DNA of 64,000 nt from Escherichia phage vB_EcoM_CRJP21: sequence record OQ708376.1; one strand, given 5' to 3'. The notes below the pieces were generated by a model. That model had not been told where the DNA came from and made no database searches. It worked only from the letters and a program-made list of their open reading frames with translations. Position 1 is the stretch's first letter, and the number at the start of each line of letters is the position of its first letter. A program made the translations under genes and the position numbers. Shown one piece after another: positions 38,230 to 51,261 of the stretch.

Positions 38230-39432
38230 CTATTGTTGCCATAACTGCGTTGGCATTAATGTTAGTGTAGTAATACTATAAGTGCCATCTGGCAATCTAC
38301 CACCATTTCCATTCCAGCCACCACATGCATATAATTTATAATCTTTAGTAATTATTATGGTTCTGCTCCAATCTTTAGATGCCATAAGAACATTTTCATA
38401 ACCACCACTTATTGCACTAAGATTAAAAATATTCCAAGTTCTAACTAATGTATTAGTTCCATTACCTTCTTGACCATATGAGTTAGCACCACTACTTCTA
38501 ACATATGGTGCGTATTGTGCCATAGGTGCACCAATTGATGCATTTCCCATATTACTTGGACAAATAAAAGTACTGTACTTACTTACATCAACCGTGACCG
38601 ATGTGTTCCTAATTGGTGTTAGCTGATTTACCGATGTAGTCGTACCATTACCCGCTTGTCCAGTACTGTTAGCCCCGCTATAATATACAGACCCACCAGT
38701 AGTAAACCACCAAGTAACATCGTATGTAGTACTAATATGTTCTACATTACTAATCACGAATTTGTTCAAATATACAACAGAACTACCACCACATCCACTT
38801 TCACCAAAGTTATCCTTACCACAAAACCATGCATCTTTATTTGATTTGATATAGTGCGTTCCTTGTAATGAACATGCCATATGTGTAACTTCACCCATAT
38901 TAGTCATAACTGTGAGTGTAGGGATGGAATTTTTATTACCAGAGCCACATTCACCATTGGTATTTCTTCCACACGCAATTACTCTACCATCGGTTAATAA
39001 TATTCTAGTACTTTCACCTATATATACACTCTTGATCATATTAGCCATAACACCTATTTTATTAAATGCAACAGTAACATCAGTCCATGTTGTCAAATAA
39101 CCATTAACAGGTGTTGCATCTCCATAATCAGAAAATGCAGCCACAGACCCAGTGTAGTATATTTTATTATCCAAATCAATCATCAACGAACCTTGAACAC
39201 CAAGCCAAAAGGCTGCACAGTTCCTTGCAAGTACTGTAAATGACGAAACTGCTGCTGAATTCCCAAGACCAAATTGATACATGTTATTACTACCATAACC
39301 ATATAAAGTATTAGTTGGGTTATGTAGATACATACAGTTTGTATAATGTTGTTGTAAAACATCTGAGAACTCTACAGGTTCTGGACCTGGTGCAATATTT
39401 GCGTACTTAACCATTCTTCCAAAAGGTAACAT
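38230..39432 (-). CDS. RCC1-like beta-propeller repeat protein (paralog 9 of 9, first transcribed)
   Basis: N-terminus MLPFGRMVKYANIAPGP; motifs GSNNMYQFGLGN, GANSYGQEGNG; AAGGAGGGAAAT RBS with TATAAT-like box upstream. Confidence 0.7.
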   Translation of the reverse strand: MLPFGRMVKYANIAPGPEPVEFSDVLQQHYTNCMYLHNPTNTLYGYGSNNMYQFGLGNSAAVSSFTVLARNCAAFWLGVQGSLMIDLDNKIYYTGSVAAFSDYGDATPVNGYLTTWTDVTVAFNKIGVMANMIKSVYIGESTRILLTDGRVIACGRNTNGECGSGNKNSIPTLTVMTNMGEVTHMACSLQGTHYIKSNKDAWFCGKDNFGESGCGGSSVVYLNKFVISNVEHISTTYDVTWWFTTGGSVYYSGANSTGQAGNGTTTSVNQLTPIRNTSVTVDVSKYSTFICPSNMGNASIGAPMAQYAPYVRSSGANSYGQEGNGTNTLVRTWNIFNLSAISGGYENVLMASKDWSRTIIITKDYKLYACGGWNGNGGRLPDGTYSITTLTLMPTQLWQQ

Positions 39433-39534: not shown

Positions 39535-39762
39535 ATGACAAATACTCTTAAGTACTACCTCAATACTCTAAATGAACTAGAGTACGGGGAATTTCTCGCG
39601 GATAGTTCGTGGCTAATTGAGCTAAAAAATTATAATAGTCCAGGATGCACCCTTATGATGAACAATGCAATTGATACCCTCATTGTGAGTATTTTACACA
39701 GCAACATCTGCGGGGATAGCAATAAACAATTATCAAAAATCTTAGTACTGCTATCTATATGA
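39535..39762 (+). CDS. small protein, tandem paralog family S (member 1)
   Basis: AGGAGAAC RBS; first of about 17 consecutive ~60 aa ORFs. Confidence 0.5.
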   Translation: MTNTLKYYLNTLNELEYGEFLADSSWLIELKNYNSPGCTLMMNNAIDTLIVSILHSNICGDSNKQLSKILVLLSI

Positions 39763-39962
39763 ACATTGAACAGTACTACATCGATGCACTACCAACAAAA
39801 GGTCTACGAGAAAGCCTACTGTATACACAAAATACTTTTATACACTACAAACGTTGTCCTAAACTCCTGAACTCGTACAGGAGTAATATCATAAGAAATG
39901 CTTTACAAGGGGCAGAAAGTATGCAATACTATTATATCCTTGCCCTTTTAATCGAGTACTAA
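39759..39962 (+). CDS. small protein, tandem paralog family S
   Basis: ATGA overlap; C-terminus YYYILALLIEY. Confidence 0.5.
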   Translation: MNIEQYYIDALPTKGLRESLLYTQNTFIHYKRCPKLLNSYRSNIIRNALQGAESMQYYYILALLIEY

Positions 39963-39963
39963 T

Positions 39964-40173
39964 ATGAATACTGAACATAAAGAATTCTACACCAAATACC
40001 TTAGCAACGAAGAACAATTGTTTCTAAGGAGTGTATCACCTTTAAGTATAGATACACCACACGCCAGAGATTGCTTTAATAATTGTATACGTAGTACTAT
40101 AGAAGCAATCGAATGTAATAACAAAAATATTATGTACTCAGGTTTAATAGGACTAATATATTTCTATGAATAA
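39964..40173 (+). CDS. small protein, tandem paralog family S
   Basis: MNTEHKEFYTKY; near-duplicate of 42804-43013. Confidence 0.55.
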   Translation: MNTEHKEFYTKYLSNEEQLFLRSVSPLSIDTPHARDCFNNCIRSTIEAIECNNKNIMYSGLIGLIYFYE

Positions 40174-40360
40174 TCATAAAGATTTCTATTGTAGTAAACT
40201 ACCCAAACAAGAACAGCTATCATTCTCTTTAGCACCACCTATGAGAAAGGATAATCTGTATTATAATTACGATTTCAGGATGGTGACACGTTATGCAATA
40301 GAACATACGTTCCCTGCAACTAAGTACCGCTCTATCCTGAACCTCATCTTTAAGTTCTAA
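40166..40360 (+). CDS. small protein, tandem paralog family S
   Basis: MNNHKDFY; overlapping start. Confidence 0.5.
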   Translation: MNNHKDFYCSKLPKQEQLSFSLAPPMRKDNLYYNYDFRMVTRYAIEHTFPATKYRSILNLIFKF

Positions 40361-40407
40361 AAGGTACACCAGGGACCGAGTACTTTAACATAGTAAGGCT
40401 AATTACA

Positions 40408-40593
40408 ATGAATCATATAAGCTACTACTACCAACAACTATCCGACAGAGACAAGTACAGTCACAACTCCCATGTGTGGTACTACAAACGCGGCAGTATA
40501 AGAGACAAACAACATTACTTCTGTATTTCTATTAAAGAAGCACTGACAACTAAGTACACGTACCGAGCAGTACTGAAACTTATTGAAATGTAA
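40408..40593 (+). CDS. small protein, tandem paralog family S
   Basis: ORF; C-terminal KYTYRAVLKLIEM resembles next member. Confidence 0.5.
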   Translation: MNHISYYYQQLSDRDKYSHNSHVWYYKRGSIRDKQHYFCISIKEALTTKYTYRAVLKLIEM

Positions 40594-40601
40594 GGAAGAA
40601 A

Positions 40602-40784
40602 ATGAACATAGAATTCTATTTAACTAAACTACAACACGCCGAAAGATTCAACTTCAATAAGTTCAATATTTTCTACAATTGCGGGAACAAAAAAGATAAA
40701 CACACCTTCCTATATGTCGTCACAAGAGATGCACAAAACGAAAAGTACACATACAGAGAAGTAATGAAACTAATCGCTATTTAA
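40602..40784 (+). CDS. small protein, tandem paralog family S
   Basis: C-terminus KYTYREVMKLIAI. Confidence 0.5.
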   Translation: MNIEFYLTKLQHAERFNFNKFNIFYNCGNKKDKHTFLYVVTRDAQNEKYTYREVMKLIAI

Positions 40785-40792
40785 GGAATACT

Positions 40793-40972
40793 ATGCAACA
40801 ATTCTATAGAGAACGTATAACCATAAAAGACCGTTTCATGTACGACACCTTCGTGAAGTACTACAAACTAGGAACAAAAAGTACTAAAAATATTAATCTC
40901 AATAGCTGCATTTATGCTGTACTAACACAAGATAATCCCTACAGGGAAATCCTCGCCCTGGCATCTATATAA
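40793..40972 (+). CDS. small protein, tandem paralog family S (59 aa, below track cutoff)
   Basis: AAGGAAT RBS; MQQFYRER...REILALASI. Confidence 0.45.
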   Translation: MQQFYRERITIKDRFMYDTFVKYYKLGTKSTKNINLNSCIYAVLTQDNPYREILALASI

Positions 40973-40982
40973 AGGAAACCAA

Positions 40983-41654
40983 ATGAAACTTAATGCACAC
41001 AGCAAACAATACCTTAAGCACTTTAAGTACCTCAATAGTATTCAGGCAGAATCAGTTACATCTGCATATACGTATCACCCGAATGTACTAAAGAAACGAA
41101 ATAAAAAGGAAAAATCCAGTACAAATGGAGTTAACGTATCAAAGAACCTTGAATTGTACATGAAGAAAAATAATATAGCTGTTCATTATATGAATATCTA
41201 TAATACTGATTTAAAAGTATTGAGTACTAATACGAGCACAAAGGTACTAAAGAACGCATCCTTCATCATCAATATGCAGTTGGATAATACCCCGTGCACT
41301 TTAATGCTATACTTCGGGAATACATACTTCTTCGGGAATTGTAACACCTCCCACGATGTCAATACAGCACAATTCCAAATGGGTGGCATATACTCTACTG
41401 ATGCAGAAAAAGTACACGAGAATATGCACTTCTGGCAAGCACAACGTACAGAAGAAACTGATACAGTACTACAATTCCTCAAAGAATTACAAGGCAAAGA
41501 ATTATCCGAGGAAGAACTATTCATGTACAGTACTGTAATCGATAATCCAGCACTCTATAAAAATGCGTACAATCTGACAAAACATGTACAGGAAATTATC
41601 AGTACTAATAAGAAAATGCATCACCTCATTACGTATATTACAAACTATGTATAA
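40983..41654 (+). CDS. hypothetical protein (223 aa) embedded in small-protein array
   Basis: AAGGAAAC RBS; much longer than neighbours. Confidence 0.5.
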   Translation: MKLNAHSKQYLKHFKYLNSIQAESVTSAYTYHPNVLKKRNKKEKSSTNGVNVSKNLELYMKKNNIAVHYMNIYNTDLKVLSTNTSTKVLKNASFIINMQLDNTPCTLMLYFGNTYFFGNCNTSHDVNTAQFQMGGIYSTDAEKVHENMHFWQAQRTEETDTVLQFLKELQGKELSEEELFMYSTVIDNPALYKNAYNLTKHVQEIISTNKKMHHLITYITNYV

Positions 41655-41847
41655 AGAATTCTACATAAAAGAACTACCAAAGTTTCTACAAGGAAATCTA
41701 TTAGAAGATGAACCTCGCGGTATTGACTGTATATATGAAGCTGATTACTTCCGTACATGTACTGAACAAGTACTTAATGAAGAAGCTAATGAAAACAATT
41801 ATCAAGTACAACTGTACCACACCCTGTACCTTGCGTTCCAGTACTAA
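41647..41847 (+). CDS. small protein, tandem paralog family S
   Basis: start at MYKEFYIKELP (41647), overlapping upstream stop. Confidence 0.55.
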   Translation: MYKEFYIKELPKFLQGNLLEDEPRGIDCIYEADYFRTCTEQVLNEEANENNYQVQLYHTLYLAFQY

Positions 41848-41856
41848 GGATAATAT

Positions 41857-42042
41857 ATGTATAAAGAATACTACATAGAGAAACTCCCAATGTATCTCCA
41901 ACACCTTGTACCAAACGTTGCATTGGGTATAGAAAAAAACTACGAAAAAGACTACTTCATTCAGTGCACTAAATCCTCGATATATATTGAAGACTATAAT
42001 CGAGTACTGTATCATATCCTTTTACTAATATATAGGTACTAA
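41857..42042 (+). CDS. small protein, tandem paralog family S
   Basis: MYKEYYIEKLP...LLIYRY. Confidence 0.55.
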   Translation: MYKEYYIEKLPMYLQHLVPNVALGIEKNYEKDYFIQCTKSSIYIEDYNRVLYHILLLIYRY

Positions 42043-42043
42043 T

Positions 42044-42226
42044 ATGCACAAAGAATACTACACACAATTTCTCCCCAGCATTTTTGAACACTACGCCAGA
42101 TATAAAGTCCCTATGGATAACGATTTGGCAGTACTGGGATTCAATAACTGCATAGAACGAAGTATAGAAAATAGTAGTAGTTATGACCAGCTATATAACA
42201 CTATCCTACTTATATTCAGGTACTAA
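42044..42226 (+). CDS. small protein, tandem paralog family S
   Basis: MHKEYYTQFLP...LLIFRY. Confidence 0.55.
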   Translation: MHKEYYTQFLPSIFEHYARYKVPMDNDLAVLGFNNCIERSIENSSSYDQLYNTILLIFRY

Positions 42227-42227
42227 C

Positions 42228-42416
42228 ATGCATAAAGAATACTACACAAAACATTTCCCAATGTACCTCAGAACTAATCTATTAGATAAACCTCGCGGTA
42301 TCAATGCACAAAACGATAAAGTGTACTTTACTATGTGCACTAAAGCATGTATACTAGATTTTGACAGCTATCATCGAGTACTGTATCATACCCTGTACCT
42401 AGCTTTCGTATTCTAA
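42228..42416 (+). CDS. small protein, tandem paralog family S
   Basis: start at MHKEYYTKHFP (42228), 1 nt after upstream stop. Confidence 0.55.
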   Translation: MHKEYYTKHFPMYLRTNLLDKPRGINAQNDKVYFTMCTKACILDFDSYHRVLYHTLYLAFVF

Positions 42417-42425
42417 GAGAACAAT

Positions 42426-42611
42426 ATGCATAAAGAATTCTACTTAAGCCATCTCGATCTAAACTCCCAAATGCTTATACCACAAATCCCAATAGATATC
42501 AAGGATAAGAAAAATACCGAACAATTCATTTACCATACACAGTGTGCGATCACCCCAAATTACATTCCATATGAATTGTACTACATTCTCGCCCTAATAT
42601 ATAGGTACTAA
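42426..42611 (+). CDS. small protein, tandem paralog family S
   Basis: MHKEFYLSHL...ALIYRY. Confidence 0.55.
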   Translation: MHKEFYLSHLDLNSQMLIPQIPIDIKDKKNTEQFIYHTQCAITPNYIPYELYYILALIYRY

Positions 42612-42612
42612 T

Positions 42613-42798
42613 ATGCATAGAGAATACTACACACAATTTGTTAAAGGGAACTACAAACATGCCGTACCCAGAACCCCTTTAAATTTTCATGACCCAAGTA
42701 CTATATTCTTGTTCCATGACGCAATACGTACAGTACTCAATACTAAAGATGAAGATGTGCAGTACGTATTCTTACTATTACTTATATACAGACACTAA
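42613..42798 (+). CDS. small protein, tandem paralog family S
   Basis: MHREYYTQFV...LLIYRH. Confidence 0.55.
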   Translation: MHREYYTQFVKGNYKHAVPRTPLNFHDPSTIFLFHDAIRTVLNTKDEDVQYVFLLLLIYRH

Positions 42799-42803
42799 CT
42801 AAT

Positions 42804-43013
42804 ATGAATAAAGAACATAAAGAATTCTACTCCAAATACATAAGCCCCTCAGAACAAATGTTTCTAAGGACTACTCCACCTTTAAGTACTAATACATTTT
42901 TCGGCAGAGTATGCTACAATAATTGTATTCAAATGACTTTAAACGCAAACGAAGATGGTAACAGTACTAACCTGTACTCAGGTATCATAGGTATACTATT
43001 CCTGTATGAATAA
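42804..43013 (+). CDS. small protein, tandem paralog family S
   Basis: MNKEHKEFYSKY...LFLYE. Confidence 0.55.
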   Translation: MNKEHKEFYSKYISPSEQMFLRTTPPLSTNTFFGRVCYNNCIQMTLNANEDGNSTNLYSGIIGILFLYE

Positions 43014-43194
43014 TTACAAAGACTTCTATTTGAATACACTACCTACTGTACTTTCTCTAAGTGCTCAATGTAAAATCCCGCTGGATAATGCTTACGCCAG
43101 ATATAGCTATTCCATAACTGTTAATCGATGTATAGAGAATCATTGCAGTACTAACCAGTACTATAACATAATCCTACTTATATTCAGGTACTAA
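43006..43194 (+). CDS. small protein, tandem paralog family S
   Basis: MNNYKDFY...LLIFRY. Confidence 0.55.
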   Translation: MNNYKDFYLNTLPTVLSLSAQCKIPLDNAYARYSYSITVNRCIENHCSTNQYYNIILLIFRY

Positions 43195-43195
43195 T

Positions 43196-43378
43196 ATGAA
43201 TAAAGAACATAAAGAATTCTATATACGAAAACTAACATTCGTCCCCGTAAGAATATATAAAGAATGCGACCCAAGATTATACCTATGGCACTTCAATGAG
43301 TGCATAAAAGATTCTATATACCCTAAGAACTACAAAGAACAATTGTGCTCAGTACTAACACTAGTACTATCATATTAA
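43196..43378 (+). CDS. small protein, tandem paralog family S
   Basis: MNKEHKEFYIRKL. Confidence 0.55.
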   Translation: MNKEHKEFYIRKLTFVPVRIYKECDPRLYLWHFNECIKDSIYPKNYKEQLCSVLTLVLSY

Positions 43379-43393
43379 TTAATAGAGAATACT

Positions 43394-43585
43394 ATGTATA
43401 AAAACTTCTATATAAGTAAACTAAAAGAAAATGAACAAGTATGGATTAGATCTATAATAGTACTGGCATTTAATAGATATGCATTTAACAGATGTACCGA
43501 GATTGCTATAGACCCTTATAATATTAAAGAGAATGTACAGTATAATCAGTACTACTATATCTTAATGCTTATATATAGGAAGTAA
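43394..43585 (+). CDS. small protein, tandem paralog family S (last member)
   Basis: MYKNFYISKL...LIYRK. Confidence 0.5.
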   Translation: MYKNFYISKLKENEQVWIRSIIVLAFNRYAFNRCTEIAIDPYNIKENVQYNQYYYILMLIYRK

Positions 43586-44570
43586 TTAAACACAAGTAGA
43601 CAGGGGAAGCTCCTAGTGAACAACCTTTATGTACAGGCGAATTGTTAAAATTCAGCCTGGACAAATGCGATCACTAGGATTCTCCCCAGGCTAAACCCCG
43701 TAATCATAGGTAGTCATAAGTAATCATATATAAACATTTATATGAGCACCGTAGAATCACAGAATGATTATATATGATTCAGTACTGATTAGTATAGACA
43801 AGAATTCTCAAGAATGCACGGGAAGGATTCAGTACTGATATGCCACTAAGTAGGCAGAGGAAGTCTGCCGTACTTTGTAGTTTCCAAGCTCCTTTTCCAT
43901 TTTTCAAATTACATCAAATGTAATCAAAAGTAATCACGCAATGATTAGTACTGAATTATTACTTTCACCTTAATTACAATTACCCTTTTACCCTTCGGGG
44001 TAAAATTCAATTACCCCTTGAGGCTCCAGCAAAAAGTTGGTTAGTACTCCATCCTAAATCTCGATCCTAAAAATTTTGGAGTACCTATGAAATAAAAGTT
44101 GGATCTTCGAAAGTTGAAATTTACGTTGGGACGTTTATGATTTGTGGGATATAATGATGTTTGTAGACGGGTAGTTCTCAAGAATATCAGTACTGAAAGA
44201 TGAAAGAAAGTTATTGACTTTATGATTCAGTACTGTATAATGTTCTACATAGGGTGATGAGTTGCTGCGAACAATTCATTTACTCTACCTCCTGTCGTGA
44301 GACAGTACAGAAAAGATAGTTCCTCCTGTGGTGGTACATCTTTTTGAACCTCATATGAAAATCGTAATAACAGTACTGATATTAACAGAATGGTGTCAGT
44401 ACTGATTTTAATCTAAAGCATTATGCCACCAGCACAAGCTGGTGGATTCCCTCTAACAGTATTCAGTACTACATGATGGTCTTCATCCTCCTAGGGTAAC
44501 ATAGTGAGGGCTATGATGGCAGTACTGAATACTCCCTTTCAAAAGATAGATCTATGGTATAGTACTGACG

Positions 44571-44759
44571 GATTTTGGGCGTAGTTACCCTGGATGGATT
44601 TTGGGCGTAGATATGTCTAGCCCTCCAGAAGTCTGGAAGTAAAGATGGCTATCCATCTAGACGGCTAAACGGCTAGATTTCTGGATGGCTGGATGGCTAG
44701 ACGTTTGGACGGCTAAACGGCTAGATGGTTACACGTCTGGAAGTATAGACGGCTAAATC
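44571..44759. repeat. iteron-like short direct repeat cluster (GGATTTTGGGCGTAG x2; ACGGCTAAACGGCTAGAT x2; GGATGGCT x2; GTCTGGAAGTA x2)
   Basis: direct repeats read in ORF-free region. Confidence 0.7.
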
Positions 44760-45384
44760 AAAATTTTATTTTGTTTTTTCCAATAGTTCCCCTACCGCGT
44801 GGGGATAGTTTCCCCGCAGTATCTGGTGTTAGATTTTTCTGAATCTGGAATCATTATCTTATAAACTGGGGGCAATGTCAACGGCCTGGCCGGATATTTT
44901 TAAAAATTTTTTCAGTACTGAATTTTGGGCGTAACTATGCACCCGGTGGGCTTGAGTCTTTCTCGACTTGATGGAACTATTATACAGTACTGGAAAAATA
45001 AAGCAATACCCTGGAAGCAAAAAAGTTTTAATTAATTTGCTTGCTATCCTGGGCCGGACTATGGTACTATATTTCAGTACTGAGAAAGTGCGTTTACCTG
45101 CTAGGGTGCGGGAGTGTATCCTTTTTTTATATCTTGAATTTTGGACGGATCTTCCCACCCCCTGGGGTATCCGCTTTCTCGCGTCTATGTAGTAATTATA
45201 CGCTTTTTCAGGATCAAGTCAATACCTAAAAACAAAATAATTGAAAATAATTTAACGCGTTTAAACGGCCTGTAAAGCCCTGGAATGATTGGAATGGTGC
45301 AAATGTATAGCTTATGTGTATTAATGCGTTAGAATGCGTCTGAGGACGTTTTACGGGGTATAGGGATGATTTAGTGGATTGATT

Positions 45385-45471
45385 CAGTACTGAATAATAG
45401 TACTCCTATATAGAAAGATAGTTCCCCTGGATGATTGCAGTACTGAATAATAGTACTCCTATATAGAAAGA
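45385..45471. repeat. 34 bp direct repeat x2 (CAGTACTGAATAATAGTACTCCTATATAGAAAGA) separated by 19 bp
   Basis: two identical copies at 45385-45418 and 45438-45471. Confidence 0.8.
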
Positions 45472-45502
45472 AAACTATTTTAAAAGTATTTGTAGAAAGT
45501 AC

Positions 45503-45561
45503 TTGCACCGTACTGATAAAAGCGTATAATGTTTTACATCGAGAGCGGGAACACTTCCCGC
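45503..45561 (+). promoter_or_regulatory. promoter (TTGCAC-N16-TATAAT) + 5' stem-loop AGCGGGAAC-N-TTCCCGCT
   Basis: first of about 25 promoter/5'-hairpin cassettes. Confidence 0.6.
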
Positions 45562-45585
45562 TACACATTAAGAGAGATTAAAACG

Positions 45586-45948
45586 ATGGCGACTCAAATC
45601 AATAAAATCATGCTTAACCTGGTAAACTTCCGCGATGAGATGAAAGGTCTTCCGGCTGAAACTGTAAAAATTCACATTGCAGCTTATCGGGAACTTATTG
45701 CAATGTTGCCGCTTAAGCGTGAACAATACGCCGCTACTTTGATGCTGGATTCAATGATCCATATAATGATCTCAAATGATTTGACGATGGTTTATCAGTA
45801 TATGGGCGAAAATTTCGCGGTGTGTAGTAAGCCAGTACCAGGGATGGCAACAACTGAGGAATTGCACGGCTTAAACTTAAAACAAGATGCATGGGATAAT
45901 ATGCCTCGTTTCCTGGTATGGGCTGACAGTGGCAAAATTTACAAATAA
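45586..45948 (+). CDS. hypothetical protein (120 aa)
   Basis: ORF track 45529-45948; ATG 45586 downstream of promoter and hairpin. Confidence 0.55.
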   Translation: MATQINKIMLNLVNFRDEMKGLPAETVKIHIAAYRELIAMLPLKREQYAATLMLDSMIHIMISNDLTMVYQYMGENFAVCSKPVPGMATTEELHGLNLKQDAWDNMPRFLVWADSGKIYK

Positions 45949-45962
45949 GTTTAATAAAGTAC

Positions 45963-46021
45963 TTGCAAACTATGTTTAATGGCGTATAATGTTTTACATC
46001 AGGTGGGGAATAGTTCCCCAC
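45963..46021 (+). promoter_or_regulatory. promoter TTGCAA-N16-TATAAT + 5' stem-loop GTGGGGAA-TAGT-TCCCCAC
   Basis: consensus hexamers; hairpin at predicted +5 to +25. Confidence 0.6.
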
Positions 46022-46041
46022 TATATAAGAGGATTAAAAAA

Positions 46042-46281
46042 ATGGCTAAATCAAAAATGTTCTTAGGTCACAAAAACAAAACTCATTGGAATGTAAGCCT
46101 TTGGATTAATAACGATGAGGGATTGTATCGGTTGGCCCAGGACTTTATTAACGATAGCACTAATCGCAATGATGCGGCCCGTCATATGATGTTATTTTTA
46201 GAACAGACTGGACAAGATAAAACACCGGACGGATTCAAATATAGCACTACTGCGATCCGTGCGGCGATGGTTGGAATGTAA
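46042..46281 (+). CDS. hypothetical protein (79 aa)
   Basis: ATG 46042 after GAGGAT. Confidence 0.55.
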   Translation: MAKSKMFLGHKNKTHWNVSLWINNDEGLYRLAQDFINDSTNRNDAARHMMLFLEQTGQDKTPDGFKYSTTAIRAAMVGM

Positions 46282-46291
46282 TAGAATTTAT

Positions 46292-46330
46292 TTAAAGTAC
46301 TATCATTTTTTTGCGATAGTACTTTATAAT
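46292..46330 (+). promoter_or_regulatory. palindrome-containing promoter-like element (AAAGTACTATC-N10-GATAGTACTTT then TATAAT)
   Basis: inverted repeat + -10 hexamer; no good -35. Confidence 0.4.
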
Positions 46331-46367
46331 AGTGTTTTATTCATACACCAACGATAAGGGCAACAGC

Positions 46368-46634
46368 ATGAAAATTAAGTATTTTGCGACGCGTGAACAA
46401 GCTCGGATCGCCGCACGCCAGGACGGGGCAACGTTTAAAGATATGGGCGTACAATCGGAACGTGGTAAACGTTGGGCCATTGTAAAGCGTAGTACCGCCA
46501 GATCATTACAGTACTGGTTAGCGGCCTTAAAAAGTCCCGATAGTGTATCGCGTCGAGTGGTAGAAATAAAGCTCGACCGAAAGGGCAACCGCGTGACCGT
46601 GTACCGTACTAAAAAGATTGCAGTACTTGAATAA
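46368..46634 (+). CDS. hypothetical protein (88 aa); paralog of 58345-58740
   Basis: MKIKYFATREQARIAARQDGATFKDMG vs MITKFYATREAARIVAREEGAAFKDMG. Confidence 0.6.
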   Translation: MKIKYFATREQARIAARQDGATFKDMGVQSERGKRWAIVKRSTARSLQYWLAALKSPDSVSRRVVEIKLDRKGNRVTVYRTKKIAVLE

Positions 46635-46642
46635 AAAGTACT

Positions 46643-46700
46643 TGCAAACTATGTTTAATGGCGTATAATGTTTTACATCGAGAGCGGGAACTCTTCCCGC
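46643..46700 (+). promoter_or_regulatory. promoter TTGCAA-N15-TATAAT + 5' stem-loop GCGGGAAC-N-TTCCCGC
   Basis: near-identical to cassette at 45963. Confidence 0.6.
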
Positions 46701-46721
46701 CTATAACCTGGAGTAATGAAA

Positions 46722-46952
46722 ATGACTAATATGTATATGACTGAAGTTAAAACCGTAAAAGATACTACCACGAATAAAACTACTTACTTACAGCGGATCT
46801 GTGGTGTATGGCAACGTATCAGCAAATCAAAGTACTTTAAATTAACATCATATGCAAACCGTTCGGATTCATTCAGTACTGAAATAAAAGGTAATAAAGT
46901 ACACCAATACGGCACTTATTATTATTATAGCCTGGACGCGATTGCAGTATAA
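46722..46952 (+). CDS. hypothetical protein (76 aa)
   Basis: ORF track 46716-46952; ATG 46722 has better spacing from GGAG. Confidence 0.5.
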   Translation: MTNMYMTEVKTVKDTTTNKTTYLQRICGVWQRISKSKYFKLTSYANRSDSFSTEIKGNKVHQYGTYYYYSLDAIAV

Positions 46953-47202
46953 GCAGTTTACAAATCTTTACAATTGCCGGTATTGACTTATTTTGTCAGT
47001 ACTGGCATAATGTATTCATTGGCAGATAAGCCGTAGCCCATAGGGTGCGGGAGTGTATCTATAGAAAAATTAGTTTAGTATAGTTACAATTGTGCACCCG
47101 GTGGGTTAGCTGTTGTCATGGGGTATATTATACCAGTACTTGATAATGCTGTCAATACTTTTTTTTTACTATTCAGTACTGAAAACTATTTTTAAAAAGT
47201 AC

Positions 47203-47348
47203 TTGCAAACTATGTTTAAAGGCGTATAATGTTTTACATCAGGACGGGGAACGAAATAAGTAACTTCCCGTTAAGTAGCCCAGGAGTAAGGCACACGAAA
47301 AACTCCCCTGATAAAATAGTTTGACAAATGTTTTTAAAAGCGTATAAT
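47203..47348 (+). promoter_or_regulatory. tandem promoters (TTGCAA..TATAAT and TTGACA..TATAAT) flanking about 80 nt structured leader
   Basis: two consensus promoters about 118 bp apart; leader holds CGGGGAAC...CCCCG-type hairpins; second copy at 57123-57267. Confidence 0.55.
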
Positions 47349-47380
47349 ACTTACATCAACTACTGAATGAGGGTTACAAA

Positions 47381-47992
47381 ATGAAAACTATCACTACTAC
47401 TACTTATGTTATGGCTTTTTCTGAATTGAACGCAGAACAACAAACGTCAGCTATCGAACTGGTTCGGGAACGTGAAAAAAACTCAAACGACAATTATTTT
47501 TCTGAAAGTGAAATTGAATACTATAAAGAAACAGTACTACCGGAATATGGCATTAATGACGCTGAAATACAATTCAGTGGTTTTTGGTCCCAGGGTGACG
47601 GTGCATCAATCAGTACTGACCACGTTGACGCAGTGAAGTTTTTACGCAAGGTAAGAGCATTAACTAAGTATCGCTCAATCCGTCACTTGCTGAATGAAGA
47701 TGATTTGGCGATGAGTGTAAAACGTTCGCACTCCCACTACTCGCATGAGAATACTGTAAGCGGGTACATTGAATCGGCTTACACTGATTTAACCGCAAAA
47801 CAAGAAACGTTAGTTAATGAGCTTGAGGAACTACTCACTGAAACTATTCGTGAATTGTCCCGCAAGTTGTACCGTGATTTAGAGAATGCATATGAGGATC
47901 AATTCACTACTGAAAACATTACGGCACTGATTGAGGGTAACGAATATCAATTCAATGTTATTGATGGCGTAGTAGAATCAATCGAATATTAA
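47381..47992 (+). CDS. hypothetical protein (203 aa)
   Basis: ORF after tandem promoter element; GAGGGT RBS. Confidence 0.6.
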   Translation: MKTITTTTYVMAFSELNAEQQTSAIELVREREKNSNDNYFSESEIEYYKETVLPEYGINDAEIQFSGFWSQGDGASISTDHVDAVKFLRKVRALTKYRSIRHLLNEDDLAMSVKRSHSHYSHENTVSGYIESAYTDLTAKQETLVNELEELLTETIRELSRKLYRDLENAYEDQFTTENITALIEGNEYQFNVIDGVVESIEY

Positions 47993-48005
47993 TTTAAAAA
48001 GTACT

Positions 48006-48075
48006 TGCAAACTAAGTTTAAAAGCGTATAATACTTTATATCGAGAGCGGGAATAGTTCCCGCTACTAATGAGGA
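48006..48075 (+). promoter_or_regulatory. promoter TTGCAA..TATAAT + 5' stem-loop AGCGGGAATAGTTCCCGCT
   Basis: cassette architecture. Confidence 0.6.
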
Positions 48076-48084
48076 ATACTACAA

Positions 48085-48249
48085 ATGAATACTTTTACCT
48101 TCGCTCAATTGAACGCCCTGGATGTATTGTCTGATGCTTTGCGGGATGCAACTGAAAGCGGTTTATTTGACAATGTTGACATTCACCCTGATGTAATTAA
48201 TAATTTTTGTGATGCTATCGCAGAAGTACTGGAAGATCTAAAAAAATAA
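48085..48249 (+). CDS. hypothetical acidic protein (54 aa)
   Basis: GAGGAAT RBS after promoter/hairpin cassette; below track cutoff. Confidence 0.45.
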   Translation: MNTFTFAQLNALDVLSDALRDATESGLFDNVDIHPDVINNFCDAIAEVLEDLKK

Positions 48250-48258
48250 TAGAAAGTA

Positions 48259-48319
48259 CTTGCAATTAGTTTTCAGTACTGTATAATGGTTTACATCAAA
48301 GGGAGAAATGGTTCTCCCT
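48259..48319 (+). promoter_or_regulatory. promoter TTGCAA-N18-TATAAT + 5' stem-loop GGGAGAA-ATGG-TTCTCCC
   Basis: cassette architecture. Confidence 0.6.
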
Positions 48320-48337
48320 GGTAATGAGGAAAATACA

Positions 48338-48559
48338 ATGGCTAATATCACTACTCTTTCCCAACTGGAAGCACTGGTTAAATCTATGCGGGAACATGCT
48401 GACAAAATCGGCGTACAAGATCCAGCCGTTTGCTTCTGCGACGAATTGAATGATGATACCCTGGTAATAGCAGAAGTCCAGGACGTTTCTAACTATTCCT
48501 CGCGTTACACTGGCGGCGTAGCAAATAAAGGTGACTTCTGTTTATACCTTACAAAATAA
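48338..48559 (+). CDS. hypothetical protein (73 aa)
   Basis: ORF track 48308-48559; ATG 48338 after GAGGAAAAT. Confidence 0.55.
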   Translation: MANITTLSQLEALVKSMREHADKIGVQDPAVCFCDELNDDTLVIAEVQDVSNYSSRYTGGVANKGDFCLYLTK

Positions 48560-48563
48560 CAAC

Positions 48564-48593
48564 GCGGGGAGATAATAACTCCCCGTTACTTTT
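48564..48593 (+). terminator. intrinsic terminator (CGGGGAG-N-CTCCCCG + T-run)
   Basis: hairpin + TTACTTTTT. Confidence 0.6.
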
Positions 48594-48727
48594 TCAGTAC
48601 TGAATCATTTAATAGACGGATCTCGGCACCCGGTGGGTTAGTGACTGTTTCGTCTTGATGTAGTAATTATGCCAGTACTGGATGCACTTGTCAACAATTA
48701 TTTTCCAAATACTTTTTATTAAAATAC

Positions 48728-48783
48728 TTGCAATTAGTTTTTAAACGCGTATAATGTTTTGCATAGGGGGAGCGGTTCCCCTG
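48728..48783 (+). promoter_or_regulatory. promoter TTGCAA..TATAAT + 5' G-rich stem-loop
   Basis: cassette architecture. Confidence 0.55.
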
Positions 48784-48802
48784 GTAACTAAGGAATAATA
48801 AA

Positions 48803-49039
48803 ATGCTTGAACAAATCAAATCAACGTCTTCGAATGTAACGGGAACGGTAGCACACTTTACTAGTGATGAATCGCGGGGCGTTCCCTATTGTGCTGTACA
48901 TGTAAACACTGAGGGTAACTACTGGTTTACGGTTTACGGATCATATTCATTTGGACGGCCTGGACATCAAAAAATTCTGGATAAAGTACAACCAACGGGT
49001 AAAAATATCACTGCCGAAATGTTTTATAAAAAATCATAA
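48803..49039 (+). CDS. hypothetical protein (78 aa)
   Basis: AAGGAAT RBS. Confidence 0.55.
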   Translation: MLEQIKSTSSNVTGTVAHFTSDESRGVPYCAVHVNTEGNYWFTVYGSYSFGRPGHQKILDKVQPTGKNITAEMFYKKS

Positions 49040-49044
49040 AGTAC

Positions 49045-49103
49045 TTGCAATTAGTTTTTAGTACTGTATAATATTTTACATCGCAAGGGGAAACGGTTTC
49101 CCC
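49045..49103 (+). promoter_or_regulatory. promoter TTGCAA-N16-TATAAT + 5' stem-loop GGGGAAAC-GG-TTTCCCC
   Basis: cassette architecture. Confidence 0.6.
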
Positions 49104-49123
49104 TGGTAACTAAGGATAATCAA

Positions 49124-49423
49124 ATGAAAATTGCAATCATCGCCCTGGCTTTATCTGTTTCCTCTTTCGCTGTTAATGCGTCATTAGATGTAAGTAGTGA
49201 AAAATTCATTCAGTGCACTGTTGCAATGACCGATGAAAGAACTGGCGAGATTGTATTAAAGGATTTAGAGATCCAGCCGGAAGCATTTAAAAACGGCCCG
49301 TTCCATGAAGAAGACGAAAACGGTAGCACGACAATTTATTATGATGCCAGTACTAAACGCGGTTCGGTCACTGTAATGGATACCGAGAAAGTAACTCATA
49401 CCGGCGTTATTAATTGCCGTTGA
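49124..49423 (+). CDS. secreted protein (signal peptide)
   Basis: N-terminus MKIAIIALALSVSSFAVNAS. Confidence 0.55.
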   Translation: MKIAIIALALSVSSFAVNASLDVSSEKFIQCTVAMTDERTGEIVLKDLEIQPEAFKNGPFHEEDENGSTTIYYDASTKRGSVTVMDTEKVTHTGVINCR

Positions 49424-49444
49424 TAGATACTACGGGGTAACATC

Positions 49445-49675
49445 ATGACTAAGCGAATTGTTTTACTTAACGAAAGCAGTACTACACAACTACTTAACGC
49501 CGTGCATTATGATATTGAAACGAGCGTTAATCTTATCAGTACTGTAGTTCTGTTGGACACTGGAAAGGTAGCCAATGATAAAGCGATTGCAGGTATACTA
49601 ACGGATCTTGTGCCTGGTAGCAGTGCACCAATAACGTTAAATGGTAAAGTGTTTAATATTTTACTCACTGATTAA
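49445..49675 (+). CDS. hypothetical protein (76 aa)
   Basis: ORF in track; GGGG-rich RBS. Confidence 0.45.
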   Translation: MTKRIVLLNESSTTQLLNAVHYDIETSVNLISTVVLLDTGKVANDKAIAGILTDLVPGSSAPITLNGKVFNILLTD

Positions 49676-49681
49676 GTACAT

Positions 49682-49709
49682 AGCCCACCTGGTGGGCTTT
49701 TTTGTTTTT
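49682..49709 (+). terminator. intrinsic terminator (AGCCCACC-TGGT-GGGCT + T-run)
   Basis: hairpin + T6GT5. Confidence 0.7.
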
Positions 49710-49757
49710 GTAGTATCGTAGTACTGAGATACTTTGAAAATAGTTTTAAAAAAGTAG

Positions 49758-49785
49758 TTGACATTACCACAGAAAAGCGTAGAAT
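49758..49785 (+). promoter_or_regulatory. promoter TTGACA-N16-TAGAAT with about 120 nt leader
   Basis: hexamers read; long leader before ATG 49909. Confidence 0.5.
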
Positions 49786-49908
49786 GTATTACATCAAGAC
49801 GGGGAGCACTAAGTAGACCGCCAGTAAGTCGAACGAAAAACTGGACACGTCGAGAAAACTTTGATACACTAATAAACGTAAACTAAACTTTAATTGAGGA
49901 TTTATAAA

Positions 49909-50391
49909 ATGGCTAATGTAAAATCATTCATCAAAGCACTGGTAGCAAATGAAACTAACGTCGCGGCTGAGATCCTGGCTGAACTGGATAACGATACCAT
50001 GAAAGCGGTACGCAACAATTTTAACATTGCGTACAGTGAAGCTAAAGAACTGCAAGCCAAAAAGGTAGCAGAACTGGAAGAACAGAAAAAAGCCCGTGAA
50101 GCAGAACTACAAGCAACAATTGAAAGTATTCAGGCGGCAGTGTCTGGATTGGATCTGGAAGTGGTTGTAGAAATGGCACATAAAGCCCTGGCGGTTAAGT
50201 ACGGTGAAGATAAGCCGGAATCTAAACCTAAAAAATGGATTCAAGAACGTGTTACTGTAGTACTTGATAACGGTGAAGAACATTTGATTCCTGTACGCGG
50301 TAACTGCATTGCGGTAGTACTGGACGCTATCAAAGAAAGCGGTATGACTCGCGAGGAATGGATCGAAGCTCATCGCAAAGTTGAAGCATAA
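49909..50391 (+). CDS. hypothetical protein (160 aa)
   Basis: ORF track 49894-50391; ATG 49909 after GAGGAT. Confidence 0.55.
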   Translation: MANVKSFIKALVANETNVAAEILAELDNDTMKAVRNNFNIAYSEAKELQAKKVAELEEQKKAREAELQATIESIQAAVSGLDLEVVVEMAHKALAVKYGEDKPESKPKKWIQERVTVVLDNGEEHLIPVRGNCIAVVLDAIKESGMTREEWIEAHRKVEA

Positions 50392-50412
50392 CAATTAAAG
50401 TACTGAATCACT

Positions 50413-50439
50413 AGCCCACCTTAAACAGTGGGCTTTTTT
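50413..50439 (+). terminator. intrinsic terminator (AGCCCAC-N-GTGGGCT + T6)
   Basis: hairpin + T-run after gene stop. Confidence 0.7.
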
Positions 50440-50593
50440 GTGTCTGTAGTATTCCAGTCCACCAGCACCGCCTAGAATCGATTCTAACGCATTAAACTGA
50501 TTATCTGATACATCGCCCTAGCTGGTGGCGTTAAGGTCGTTAGAATGCGATTGAGAGCGTTTAAAGTATTTTGCAAAAAGTAATAAAAAGTAC

Positions 50594-50655
50594 TTGCACG
50601 ATTAAGAGATTAGCGTATAATGTTTTACATCGAGAGGGGGAAACGGTTCTCCTTC
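50594..50655 (+). promoter_or_regulatory. promoter TTGCAC..TATAAT + 5' stem-loop
   Basis: cassette architecture. Confidence 0.55.
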
Positions 50656-50676
50656 CAAATCAAAGGAATCAAAACA

Positions 50677-50904
50677 ATGGCTATTATCATTACTCGCGTA
50701 TCTGGTACTACTGGCAACGAACAAGTAGTTGCAGTCATTACTAACAAGGCAGGTGCGGAATTGCAAAATGCAATGAATACCTGGGCCGTTAATGAGTTCG
50801 GTCAGTGGGCAAGTGTAGCATACATTGAAACCTATCAAGTGCCGTCGATTAGTTTAACTGATTTGGGCGTTGAGCGTATCCTTTGCCTGGATGAATTAAA
50901 TTAA
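50677..50904 (+). CDS. hypothetical protein (75 aa)
   Basis: ORF track 50620-50904; ATG 50677 after AAGGAAT. Confidence 0.55.
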   Translation: MAIIITRVSGTTGNEQVVAVITNKAGAELQNAMNTWAVNEFGQWASVAYIETYQVPSISLTDLGVERILCLDELN

Positions 50905-50913
50905 AAAAAGTAC

Positions 50914-50973
50914 TTGCAAAGTAAATCGAATAAAGTATAATACATTACATCAAGGGGAGAAATGATTCTCCCC
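50914..50973 (+). promoter_or_regulatory. promoter TTGCAA-N16-TATAAT + 5' stem-loop GGGGAGAA-ATGA-TTCTCCCC
   Basis: cassette architecture. Confidence 0.6.
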
Positions 50974-50990
50974 ACTACAAGGAAACTAAA

Positions 50991-51203: not shown

Positions 51204-51226
51204 AAATATTATCACAGTACTATTGA

Positions 51227-51261
51227 CATAGTTTGATAGTACTGGCATAATAGATTTTATC
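51227..51261 (+). promoter_or_regulatory. promoter with embedded palindrome AGTACTAT-TGACATAGTTTG-ATAGTACT (operator-like), -10 CATAAT
   Basis: 8 bp inverted arms flank -35 TTGACA and spacer; the same or a closely related palindrome architecture recurs at 46292, 53833, 54093, 58262 and 61888. Confidence 0.55.

Follow-up and report, generated by a model that had tools for sequence, protein, structure and literature searches.

The DNA analyzed here, 64,000 nucleotides of Escherichia phage vB_EcoM_CRJP21 (OQ708376.1; the window), makes up the last 64 kb, at the right-hand end, of a linear Asteriusvirus chromosome, i.e. that of a PBECO4/121Q-like jumbo coliphage. It comprises the rightmost stretch of unique genomic sequence (positions 1-43,848) and, as judged from alignments with related phages, a complete direct terminal repeat (DTR) of 20,152 bp on the plus strand (43,849-64,000). 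The unique arm is 91% coding and syntenic with the 312-357 kb region of phage vB_Ec-M-J. Its last genes before the chromosome end are 18 plus-strand ORFs (39,535-43,585), most of them ~60-aa paralogues arranged in tandem, followed by a non-coding final 263 bp (43,586-43,848) with two copies of the CAGTACTG motif at 43,780 and 43,830. The DTR opens with a non-coding leader (43,849-45,585) and continues with 51 small plus-strand ORFs (45,586-63,848; median 79 aa, 72% coding). Genes were called by a simple ORF picker; no tRNA genes were found within the 64-kb window.

The leader has no credible ORF, contains ten copies of CAGTACTG, and is kept at 92-98% identity in 26 related records. A sigma-70-like promoter in the leader (44,214-44,241, plus strand; TTGACT, 16-nt spacer, TATAAT; an 11/12 match) is followed by a candidate structured non-coding transcript (44,249-44,412, plus strand; fold z-score -4.25), whose terminal 14-bp hairpin is made of two CAGTACTG copies and which includes a terminator-like site at 44,371-44,404. 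The Rfam scan of the 43-64 kb region (E <= 1) returned three chance-level matches only, and none for this candidate. A unit resembling it, as judged by eye, is present in the Klebsiella jumbo phage fENko-Kae01. Two GAyGGATTTTGGGCGTAG boxes and then an 8-bp-periodic array of direct repeats (GGATGGCT / GGACGGCT / AAACGGCT) occupy positions 44,567-44,755 of the plus strand and form a candidate protein-binding array, whose predicted function would be packaging or replication; fENko-Kae01 has a homologous box of this type, which is followed by repeats unlike those of CRJP21. The leader also holds the promoter of the first gene cassette (45,503-45,530, plus strand; TTGCAC, 16-nt spacer, TATAAT).

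Most ORFs of the array are organized as single-gene cassettes with a common layout: a sigma-70 promoter, a G/C hairpin in the 5'-UTR, a Shine-Dalgarno site, and the ORF. The repeat contains 104 sigma-70 matches (vs 67 +/- 9 in shuffles), the near-consensus promoters have a single orientation, and at least 30 of the 51 genes have a promoter of their own. Among the encoded proteins are a DksA/TraR C4 zinc-finger protein of 85 aa (54,959-55,216, plus strand; Pfam PF01258, E = 5e-11), a GNAT acetyltransferase of 118 aa (55,280-55,636, plus strand; PF00583, E = 4e-9), and a kinase-like protein of 194 aa (59,662-60,246, plus strand), whose Pfam match is weak, falling below threshold; a homologue is encoded in the repeat of fENko-Kae01, and relatives carry a Ser/Thr kinase annotation for this protein. 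The cassettes are similar to the early promoter plus stem-loop (PeSL) cassettes of T4-type hyperplastic regions (PMC2839356, PMC4122927): small, variable orphan genes are bordered by recurring intergenic units of ~85 bp, each with a poly-G/poly-C stem-loop and a Shine-Dalgarno site besides the near-consensus sigma-70 promoter, and all seven alignment breakpoints found in one pairwise comparison of the vB_Ec-M-J and CRJP21 repeats lie in intergenic cassettes. In the PeSLs of phages PST and nt-1, the stem-loop precedes the promoter and serves as a terminator (PMC2839356, PMC4122927), whereas in CRJP21 it lies 12-13 nt past the -10 box, within the 5' UTR, and has no U tract.

An earlier note on this DNA, made from the sequence alone, described two compositionally different halves that share a promoter type, a motif, and a hairpin. 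The motif is indeed common to both: CAGTACTG occurs in 59 copies (0.9 expected), 24 of them on the left, 12 in the interval of 43.6-45.5 kb, and 23 on the right; a literature search for it returned primer sequences only. Likewise, the hairpin that incorporates a -35 box (AAAGGnTTGACTnCGGTCAGnCnTTT) is found on the left (10,219, 13,646, and 15,246) and on the right (52,961, 56,988, 60,258, and 62,516). The promoter type is shared only weakly, with 12 perfect 12/12 sigma-70 matches in 43.6-63.6 kb, none in 23.6-43.6 kb, and three in 3.6-23.6 kb.

The structural key to the two halves, which the note missed, is that the boundary between them is a physical chromosome end and that the right half is a whole DTR. 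Window position 43,849 aligns to position 1 of phage fEgEco12 (99.0% identity over 3 kb), whose termini were mapped by PhageTerm and restriction digests in the paper describing that phage, and to position 1 of vB_Ec-M-J, where the 21,525-bp repeat annotated for that phage begins. At the other end, the final base of the window corresponds to fEgEco12 position 20,993, with which the fEgEco12 repeat ends; thus, the G+C-richer half would be one complete DTR. The right-terminus motif ATTGGACTATG-N35-CCT (63,955-64,000, plus strand) reaches the chromosome end; in relatives the cut falls between CCT and TAGC, and the motif flanking the right border is shared with fENko-Kae01. Since only the right-hand copy lies within the window, the DTR call for CRJP21 was made via the mapped termini of its relatives. 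The repeats of fEgEco12 (20,993 bp) and vB_Ec-M-J agree with that of CRJP21 in position, length, and gene content, and long DTRs are also present elsewhere in the RaK2/121Q/PA5oct clade of jumbo phages (19,736 bp in fENko-Kae01, ~39 kb in PA5oct). The DTR architecture is already known, which makes the present finding largely ordinary, being a further instance of a known design. In the literature on the terminal repeats of this clade, we found no mention of a step in composition or codon usage where the repeat begins or ends: the text of the fEgEco12 paper, when searched, contained no 'GC content' or 'promoter' passage, and in the PA5oct paper codon usage was compared for the whole genome only (PMC7318152).

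The step change claimed between 43.6 and 45.5 kb is real. The best single change-point in the 64-kb window, obtained by maximum likelihood, falls inside this interval at 44,251 (log-likelihood ratio 53). The G+C content is 34.12% for 1-43,590, 38.43% for 43,590-45,530, and 38.27% for 45,530-64,000, or, by structural compartment, 34.1% for the unique arm and 38.3% for the DTR; in 500-bp windows it rises from 0.304 (43,000-43,499) to 0.430 (44,250-44,749). Blocks of 1 kb have a mean of 0.342 (sd 0.031) on the left and 0.382 (sd 0.024) on the right (Mann-Whitney p = 1.5e-5), the step being small, ~4 percentage points, so that single blocks from both halves overlap in G+C. The modest size of the step could suggest ordinary patchiness, i.e. 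local G+C variation of the kind present in phage genomes, with a border of no special meaning, and the genome of the related phage TH47 has a second G+C-rich block of comparable size and level at 300-317 kb (~0.389). We consider this explanation very improbable: the optimal split of the 64 blocks at 44 kb (t = 6.05) was not reached in any of 5,000 block permutations (maximum 5.35), and the borders of the step agree with experimentally mapped termini. The idea that the repeat is one among several equivalent G+C-rich blocks was also rejected, because the TH47 block, which encodes tail fibre and virion proteins and thymidylate synthase (thyA), owes its G+C to the first two codon positions and is poor at the third (GC3 only 0.16-0.40, mostly ~0.2), and is a different phenomenon from the terminal-repeat block. 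The same type of step was observed in fEgEco12 (38.5% in the repeat vs 32.1%), where the change-point (21,013) is 20 bp off the repeat border, and in fENko-Kae01 (37.3% vs 33.8%; change-point 19,577, repeat border 19,736), which places the inner DTR border 20-160 bp from the end of the G+C-rich block in these two phages. As a separate observation, GC skew in the window has a minimum near 43.7 kb, which might be taken for a replication origin; across the TH47 genome, skew tracks the direction of transcription.

The extra G+C of the repeat resides almost wholly in coding DNA, where it affects codon positions 3 and 1. Coding G+C is 39.7% in the repeat vs 34.2% on the left, and intergenic G+C is 34.7% vs 33.7%; repeat and left genes differ in GC3 (0.370 vs 0.267) and GC1 (0.492 vs 0.418), with GC2 nearly equal (0.340 vs 0.344). 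These values eliminate G+C-rich intergenic hairpins as the cause, and short gene length was discarded as well, since equally small fEgEco12 genes just past the repeat have a GC3 of 0.297 and a codon adaptation index (CAI) of 0.281. With the ribosomal-protein, tufA, and fusA genes of E. coli as reference, the median CAI of repeat genes is 0.426, compared to 0.26-0.35 for groups of left genes (p = 3e-8). Repeat genes favour CTG, ATC, CCG, GGC, CGC, ACC, and CAG and avoid AGA, AGG, ATA, and ACA. The rise of G/C-ending codons is limited to those preferred in E. coli (mean log-odds +0.81 vs +0.14, p = 0.0075), and AAG and GAG drop. The pattern is replicated in fEgEco12 (CAI 0.443 vs 0.281, p = 6e-15; AGA 0.08 vs 0.44; ACA 0.18 vs 0.55), and the CAI shift in fENko-Kae01 (0.421 vs 0.311, p = 3e-4). 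The codons AGA and ACA, common outside the repeat, are matched by phage-encoded tRNAs, as seen in TH47, whose genome encodes tRNA-Arg(UCU) and tRNA-Thr(UGU). The codons named in the earlier note for the right half were mostly the proper ones: CTG increases from 0.10 to 0.28 of Leu codons, GCG from 0.06 to 0.17, and CCG from 0.07 to 0.34, but CGT declines from 0.45 to 0.41, the Arg codons that rise instead being CGC and CGG. Its description of the left proteins as Asn/Lys/Ile/Tyr-heavy applies to Tyr but not to Asn (6.7 vs 6.5%), Lys (6.4 vs 7.4%), or Ile (7.8 vs 7.5%); the residues commoner on the left are Tyr, Phe, and Ser.

Of the two causes that the note had offered for the shift, different codon or expression constraints are thus well supported, as the excess is found at positions 3 and 1 and is directed to codons preferred in E. 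coli. On the strength of this analysis, the repeat is probably an array of immediate-early cassettes driven by the host polymerase, with codons tuned to the translation system of the naive host. Its genes would be immediate-early or host-takeover genes, transcribed by the host RNA polymerase in its unmodified state, and their translation would precede the build-up of phage tRNAs, so that selection at this stage would keep their codon usage, and hence their G+C content, nearer to that of the host. Recombination at the repeated promoter cassettes would shuffle genes inside the array and with other coliphages; a minority of the array genes would thereby enter from a common pool that matches the array in composition. 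Early timing in Asteriusvirus is suggested by the promoters and by PA5oct, where, by RNA-seq, the gp34-gp105 part of the repeat consists mostly of early genes, and where growth depends on the host polymerase (PMC7318152). Our search for literature on Asteriusvirus early genes or terminal-repeat codon usage found nothing relevant.

Similar arrangements exist in other phages. The pre-early genes of phage T5 are located in its 10-kb terminal repeats, and the host-takeover module of Bacillus phage SPO1 lies in a 13-kb terminal redundancy. As in CRJP21, these are long terminal repeats packed with small genes under strong host-type promoters, which are expressed first and act on the host; however, both phages are unrelated to Asteriusvirus, and no sign of a two-step DNA entry, as known for T5, was seen for CRJP21. 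For phage T4, codon usage was reportedly found to depend on expression time and on phage tRNAs (work of Cowe and Sharp, 1991, and Kunisawa, 1992). The likeness to T4 is that early genes are nearer to host codons and later genes use the codons of phage tRNAs, here AGA and ACA with tRNA-Arg(UCU) and tRNA-Thr(UGU). In CRJP21, unlike in T4, the putative early class is confined to one block with sharp borders, which are chromosome ends, and because of this confinement it becomes visible as a G+C step.

Since the edges of the repeat are also the edges of the early array, position alone does not tell selection on early genes apart from a mutational process specific to the repeat. Under the latter, the two repeat copies would recombine in each cycle, by circularisation or concatemer formation, and GC-biased heteroduplex repair, or a special replication and repair regime at chromosome ends, would lift the G+C content of the repeat whatever the function of its genes. 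Such a process would account for block borders within 20-400 bp of the repeat borders in three phages and for the G+C-rich leader (38.6%; 40.0% for 44,251-45,585), which, being non-coding, is not explained by codon selection. Two codons also run counter to host tuning: CGG, rare in highly expressed E. coli genes and non-preferred, shows the largest increase (from 0.01 to 0.19 of Arg codons), and TTA is unchanged at 0.32. Nevertheless, we regard a repeat-specific bias as an unlikely source of the step, because the non-preferred codons AGG, TTG, GGG, CTC, CCC, GTC, GTG, AAG, and GAG do not rise, GC2 is unchanged, intergenic DNA inside the array has a G+C content of just 34.7%, and substitutions at non-coding repeat sites are balanced (101 AT-to-GC vs 97 GC-to-AT).

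The second cause offered in the note, a different evolutionary origin under a shared regulatory grammar, holds for a minority of the genes only. For about 10 of the 51 repeat genes, the small-gene array of Vequintavirinae phage W70 contains homologues (59-93% amino-acid identity, three of them weaker at 30-42%), and approximately one-fifth of the repeat genes appear, from these sequence matches, to have been exchanged with Vequintavirinae phages. If the whole block had been acquired from a G+C-richer phage lineage or mobile pool, with the donor composition kept and resident signals added, the wider distribution of its sequences would be accounted for: in megablast searches with queries of equal length, the repeat matched 224 phage records, including Vequintavirinae and Phapecoctavirus at 80-90% identity, and two left stretches matched 36 and 82. 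The W70 array has the same composition as the repeat (GC1/2/3 of 0.48/0.344/0.376), and the tetranucleotide signature of the repeat is unlike the resident one, correlating at r = 0.37 with its own unique arm (0.66-0.95 among unique regions), as opposed to 0.67 and 0.79 for the W70 array and the fENko-Kae01 repeat, respectively; coding DNA without homologues retains r = 0.70 (W70) and 0.78 (fENko-Kae01). On the other hand, 18 of the 51 genes have homologues in the distant fENko-Kae01, all of them inside its repeat, and these genes have the highest GC3 (0.389). The lineage hallmark AGTACT is present at full density (4.2 per kb of coding DNA in the repeat, 3.3 in the unique arm), being ~4.9 per kb in genes without W70 homologues, 1.2 in W70-shared genes, and ~1 in W70 itself. 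No decay to A+T-rich composition was observed: polarised substitutions in the repeat, a test of low power with crude polarisation, are balanced (358 AT-to-GC vs 374 GC-to-AT), and the implied equilibrium G+C is 0.371 vs the current 0.382, the unique arm in this three-way comparison being sampled over 5.4 kb only. In addition, fENko-Kae01, a phage of another genus that infects another host (Klebsiella), has the same step, and the codons shift towards host usage instead of simply gaining G+C. Wholesale foreign origin of the block thus seems doubtful, and we favour the immediate-early cassette array with gene exchange at its cassettes.

The biology proposed for CRJP21 is that expected from T4, T5, SPO1, and PA5oct, with early genes in long terminal repeats and time-dependent codon usage, and a single block would tie together early timing, independence of phage tRNAs, and cassette shuffling. 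In practical terms, the change-point in G+C and codon usage locates both terminal-repeat borders to 20-400 bp in this phage group; among the deposited Asteriusvirus records, many are circular permutations or come without the repeat, and for these it offers a cheap aid to orientation and correction. The tetranucleotide and codon signatures of early-gene arrays from unrelated virulent enterobacterial phages (Asteriusvirus, the Klebsiella jumbo phage, and Vequintavirinae) correlate mutually at r = 0.70-0.80, even for non-homologous coding DNA, and at 0.2-0.6 with their own genomes. We tentatively suggest, as a possibility still short of probable, that these arrays form one compositional compartment. 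If so, either early cassettes flanked by promoters would circulate between phage families as a common pool, or the arrays would have been strongly tuned, by convergence, to the uninfected host, and the borders of repeats and early regions, hence the chromosome ends, would be predictable from sequence alone.

The G+C content of the window rises from 34.1% in 1-43,590 to 38.4% in 43,590-45,530 and 38.3% in 45,530-64,000. The best single split is a change-point at 44,251 (log-likelihood ratio 53), which falls inside the interval 43,590-45,530 where the earlier note had described an abrupt shift of base composition. The means of 1-kb blocks are 0.342 to the left and 0.382 to the right (Mann-Whitney p = 1.5e-5), with the best block split at 44 kb (t = 6.05; matched by 0 of 5,000 block permutations), and in 500-bp windows G+C climbs from 0.30 at about 43.0 kb to 0.43 at about 44.7 kb. 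The shift is genuine and sits where the earlier note put it, though its size is modest, about 4 points.

This step coincides with the border of a terminal repeat. Megablast assigned the phage to Asteriusvirus, jumbo coliphages of the PBECO4/121Q group. The region 43,000-46,500 was covered to at least 80% by 26 records, the best of them at 92-98% identity; the arrangement at the junction is thus constant and does not stem from an assembly artefact. A direct terminal repeat of 21,525 bp is annotated at the start of the record of the close relative vB_Ec-M-J, whose position 1 aligns to 43,849 of the window. In fEgEco12, another close relative, the repeat is 20,993 bp long; PhageTerm defined its termini, and restriction digests bore them out (PMC13070987). 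Position 1 of fEgEco12 also falls on 43,849 (99.0% identity over 3 kb), and the final base of the window ("...GGGTAACCT") is the final base of the fEgEco12 repeat, where "TAGCGAC" comes next. Given these mapped termini, the window is the last 64 kb of a linear record, composed of a unique right arm (43,848 bp, 34.1% G+C) and one complete repeat (20,152 bp, 38.3% G+C). Within the interval 43,590-45,530 lie the final 259 bp of the unique arm, then the terminus and the greater part of a non-coding leader, which ends at 45,585. A right-terminus motif, ATTGGACTATG followed by about 35 nt and then CCTTAGC, cut between CCT and TAGC, is common to the window (63,955-64,000), fEgEco12 (handle L005, 20,948-21,000) and the distant Klebsiella phage fENko-Kae01 (handle L016, 19,690-19,745), which suggests a conserved sequence-specific terminase cut. 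Unlike the right termini, the left termini show no likeness.

The step is kept in two other phages. In fEgEco12, G+C is 38.5% in the repeat versus 32.1% in the next 29 kb, and the change-point (21,013) is 20 bp off the inner repeat border. In fENko-Kae01 (repeat of 19,736 bp, annotated on the basis of PhageTerm), the values are 37.3% in the repeat versus 33.8% beyond it, with the change-point at 19,577. Since the G+C-rich block is the repeat in both these phages as well, the coincidence is a conserved property of the clade. A profile in 2.5-kb steps over the unannotated 352-kb genome of the relative TH47 gave about 0.386 G+C for the repeat region and revealed a second rich block at 300-317 kb (about 0.389), encoding tail fibre, virion proteins, an ATPase and thymidylate synthase. 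The G+C excess of this second block lies at codon positions 1 and 2; its GC3 is mostly 0.16-0.25, and T-ending codons are preferred (CGT 0.74, GGT 0.74). Among the regions examined, raised G+C is combined with host-like G/C-ending codons in the repeat only.

Coding DNA holds the shift, which falls on synonymous sites and first codon positions: comparing the repeat with the unique arm, coding G+C is 39.7% versus 34.2%, intergenic G+C 34.7% versus 33.7%, GC1 0.492 versus 0.418, GC2 0.340 versus 0.344, and GC3 0.370 versus 0.267. Ala, Asp, Glu, Arg and Gln are more frequent in the repeat proteins, and Phe, Tyr and Ser less so. The codon change points towards the host, E. coli. With 29 E. coli K-12 genes (ribosomal-protein genes, rpoA, tufA and fusA) as the reference, the median CAI of repeat genes is 0.426 versus 0.26-0.35 in three left-hand gene groups (p = 3e-8), which supports the proposal of the earlier note that the two halves are under different codon or expression constraints. 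From the unique arm to the repeat, the shares of CTG (0.10 to 0.28), ATC (0.18 to 0.49), CCG (0.07 to 0.34), GGC (0.06 to 0.24) and CGC (0.08 to 0.24) go up, and those of ATA (0.29 to 0.09), AGA (0.26 to 0.08), AGG (0.08 to 0.02) and ACA (0.36 to 0.20) go down. Among G/C-ending codons, the rise is confined to those preferred by E. coli, CGG excepted (mean log-odds +0.81 vs +0.14, p = 0.0075); AAG and GAG become slightly rarer, in line with E. coli preference. CGG (0.01 to 0.19) is a clear exception to the host-preferred pattern. This codon, which is not preferred by E. coli, accounts for 19% of Arg codons in the repeat versus 1% in the unique arm, and 18% versus 0% in fEgEco12, with no rise in the fENko-Kae01 repeat. 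The codon shift was replicated in fEgEco12 (CAI 0.443 in the repeat versus 0.281, p = 6e-15; AGA 0.08 versus 0.44; ACA 0.18 versus 0.55) and in fENko-Kae01 (CAI 0.421 versus 0.311, p = 3e-4). TH47 encodes tRNA-Arg(UCU), tRNA-Thr(UGU), tRNA-Asn and tRNA-Ser(GCU); thus AGA and ACA are served by phage tRNAs, and these are exactly the codons avoided by repeat genes. A repair bias specific to the repeat could also raise its G+C, as the repeat and the early array have identical borders and the non-coding leader is likewise G+C-rich, but the behaviour of the non-preferred G/C-ending codons speaks against such a bias, which we regard as improbable.

No credible ORF was found in the leader (43,849-45,585), which holds 10 of the window's copies of CAGTACTG. 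A sigma-70-like promoter at 44,214-44,241 is followed on the plus strand by a candidate non-coding RNA of 164 nt (44,249-44,412; folding z = -4.25 versus shuffles), with a terminal 14-bp hairpin formed by two CAGTACTG copies; the repeat of the clade relative PA5oct also has non-coding RNAs. Two GAyGGATTTTGGGCGTAG boxes and an 8-bp-periodic repeat array (about 44,627-44,755) are further elements of the leader. Its segments 44,043-44,085 and 45,152-45,202 are 90-93% identical to fENko-Kae01 (L016, 86-128 and 1,073-1,124), although the average identity between the two genomes is <30%; different short repeats occupy the relative place of the 8-bp array in the fENko-Kae01 leader.

From 45,586 onwards, the repeat carries 51 small plus-strand ORFs (median 79 aa; coding density only 72%) in a promoter-per-gene layout, with a stereotyped spacer order: AGTAC-TTGCAA or TTGACA, a 16-nt spacer, TATAAT, 12-13 nt, an 8-bp G/C hairpin, Shine-Dalgarno and ATG. 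The repeat contains 12 perfect sigma-70 consensus promoters, versus 0 and 3 in two 20-kb stretches leftward, and in fEgEco12 tight packing and overlap of genes start directly beyond the repeat. Recognisable products include a DksA/TraR zinc finger, a GNAT acetyltransferase and a weak kinase match. The G/C hairpin (e.g. GGGGAGAA-loop-TTCTCCCC) was found in at least 17 cassettes of 45,586-63,848, 12-13 nt past the -10 box; it has no U tract and sits at the mRNA 5' end, not at a terminator position. It could be an mRNA stabiliser, or a processing or regulatory target.

A non-coding element is present in seven copies (45,035-45,235; 46,975-47,300; 52,955-53,100; 54,628-54,760; 56,982-57,215; 60,252-60,400; 62,510-62,680). 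Most copies consist of a terminator hairpin with a -35 box (AAAGGGATTGACTCCGGTCAGTCCCTTT), TATTAT, and about 55 nt holding an invariant GGGTGC..A.TGTA.C core, followed by the next early promoter; a plain promoter replaces the hairpin in the 45-kb, 47-kb and 54-kb copies. A related unit is present in the fENko-Kae01 leader, and Rfam gave no match for the element, which may encode a family of very short RNAs.

No other part of the window is as mosaic as the repeat, of which related genomes cover only 27-81%. When the repeat is aligned to that of vB_Ec-M-J, each of the seven breakpoints falls in an intergenic promoter cassette, the alignment ends often overlapping, which agrees with the PeSL model of T4-type phages (PMC2839356, PMC4122927). 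Unlike the PeSL, the cassettes have their hairpin inside the 5' UTR and without a U tract.

A different evolutionary origin, the other explanation offered by the earlier note, would apply to about a fifth of the genes. Equal-length megablast queries retrieved 224 records for the repeat versus 36 and 82 for two left stretches, and Vequintavirinae and Phapecoctavirus were matched only by the repeat (5-7% of its length, 87-90% identity). In W70, a phage of the Vequintavirinae, small genes flanked by promoters form a comparable array whose GC1/2/3 is the same (0.48/0.344/0.376), and 10 of the 51 repeat genes have homologues in this phage. The tetranucleotide signatures of the two halves differ: for the repeat, the correlation is 0.37 when set against its own unique arm, compared with 0.79 for the fENko-Kae01 repeat and 0.67 for the W70 array, the correlations among unique regions being 0.66-0.95, and the signature persists in coding DNA alone and in genes without detected homologues (fENko-Kae01 0.78, W70 0.70). 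However, for 18 of the 51 genes the homologues are all inside the fENko-Kae01 repeat, and these genes have the top GC3 (0.389). The enrichment of AGTACT (280 vs 21.7 expected in the whole window) is lineage-specific, missing from W70 and E. coli, and in coding DNA this palindrome is no less dense in the repeat, at 4.2 per kb, than in the unique arm, at 3.3 per kb, the W70-shared genes being the only AGTACT-poor ones (1.2 per kb). A crude three-genome polarisation counted 358 changes from AT to GC within the repeat and 374 from GC to AT, so that its composition is near equilibrium and not decaying. We conclude that most of the gene array is long resident, while approximately one fifth looks to have been exchanged with other coliphages. 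Matches of the repeat at 80-90% identity to "Campylobacter phage" records (seven for the megablast query 43,000-46,500 and 13 for 45,500-64,000) may reflect mislabelled records or shared short cassettes.

AGTACT is densest at 43,586-45,585, and CAGTACTG occurs 59 times in the window (about 0.8 expected), with 35 copies in coding DNA and only about 9 in promoter spacers. Palindrome enrichment is also observed in TH47, fEgEco12 and fENko-Kae01 (186 vs 15 in the last). It is uncommon for a phage to have a palindrome over-represented throughout its genome; it may be a binding site or a modification site.

In the unique arm, 18 back-to-back plus-strand ORFs at 39,535-43,585 are mostly paralogues of ~60 aa, starting with M-x-K-E-[YF]-Y and ending with LL-[IL]-[FY]-R-Y; one 223-aa gene and one doubtful 56-aa ORF are among them. 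Despite the plus-strand ORFs, GC skew is negative and AT skew strongly positive; GC3 is high (0.38) and CAI low (0.26). The minus-strand run at 28,411-39,432 comprises genes of 298-433 aa, mostly paralogues annotated in relatives as RCC1-like ("regulator of chromosome condensation"; 14 copies in vB_Ec-M-J), and is opened by a 298-aa gene (28,411-29,307), a virion structural protein by relatives' annotation. Between its genes stand near-identical terminators of the form GCCAGTAC-nnn-GTACTGGC with a T run.

By their promoters and by analogy with PA5oct, in which repeat genes are largely early and growth requires host polymerase (PMC7318152), the repeat genes would be expressed first. Selection for translation by a naive host would keep their codon usage. 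The Asteriusvirus terminal repeat itself has already been described in print and annotated. Long repeats carrying early genes, and expression-time-dependent codon usage, are known from T5, SPO1 and T4. In PA5oct, too, early genes lie in a long repeat (PMC7318152). In the papers examined, we found no description of a composition and codon step at repeat borders; the step is a fresh instance of an already known design, and it serves to locate chromosome ends in deposited genomes.
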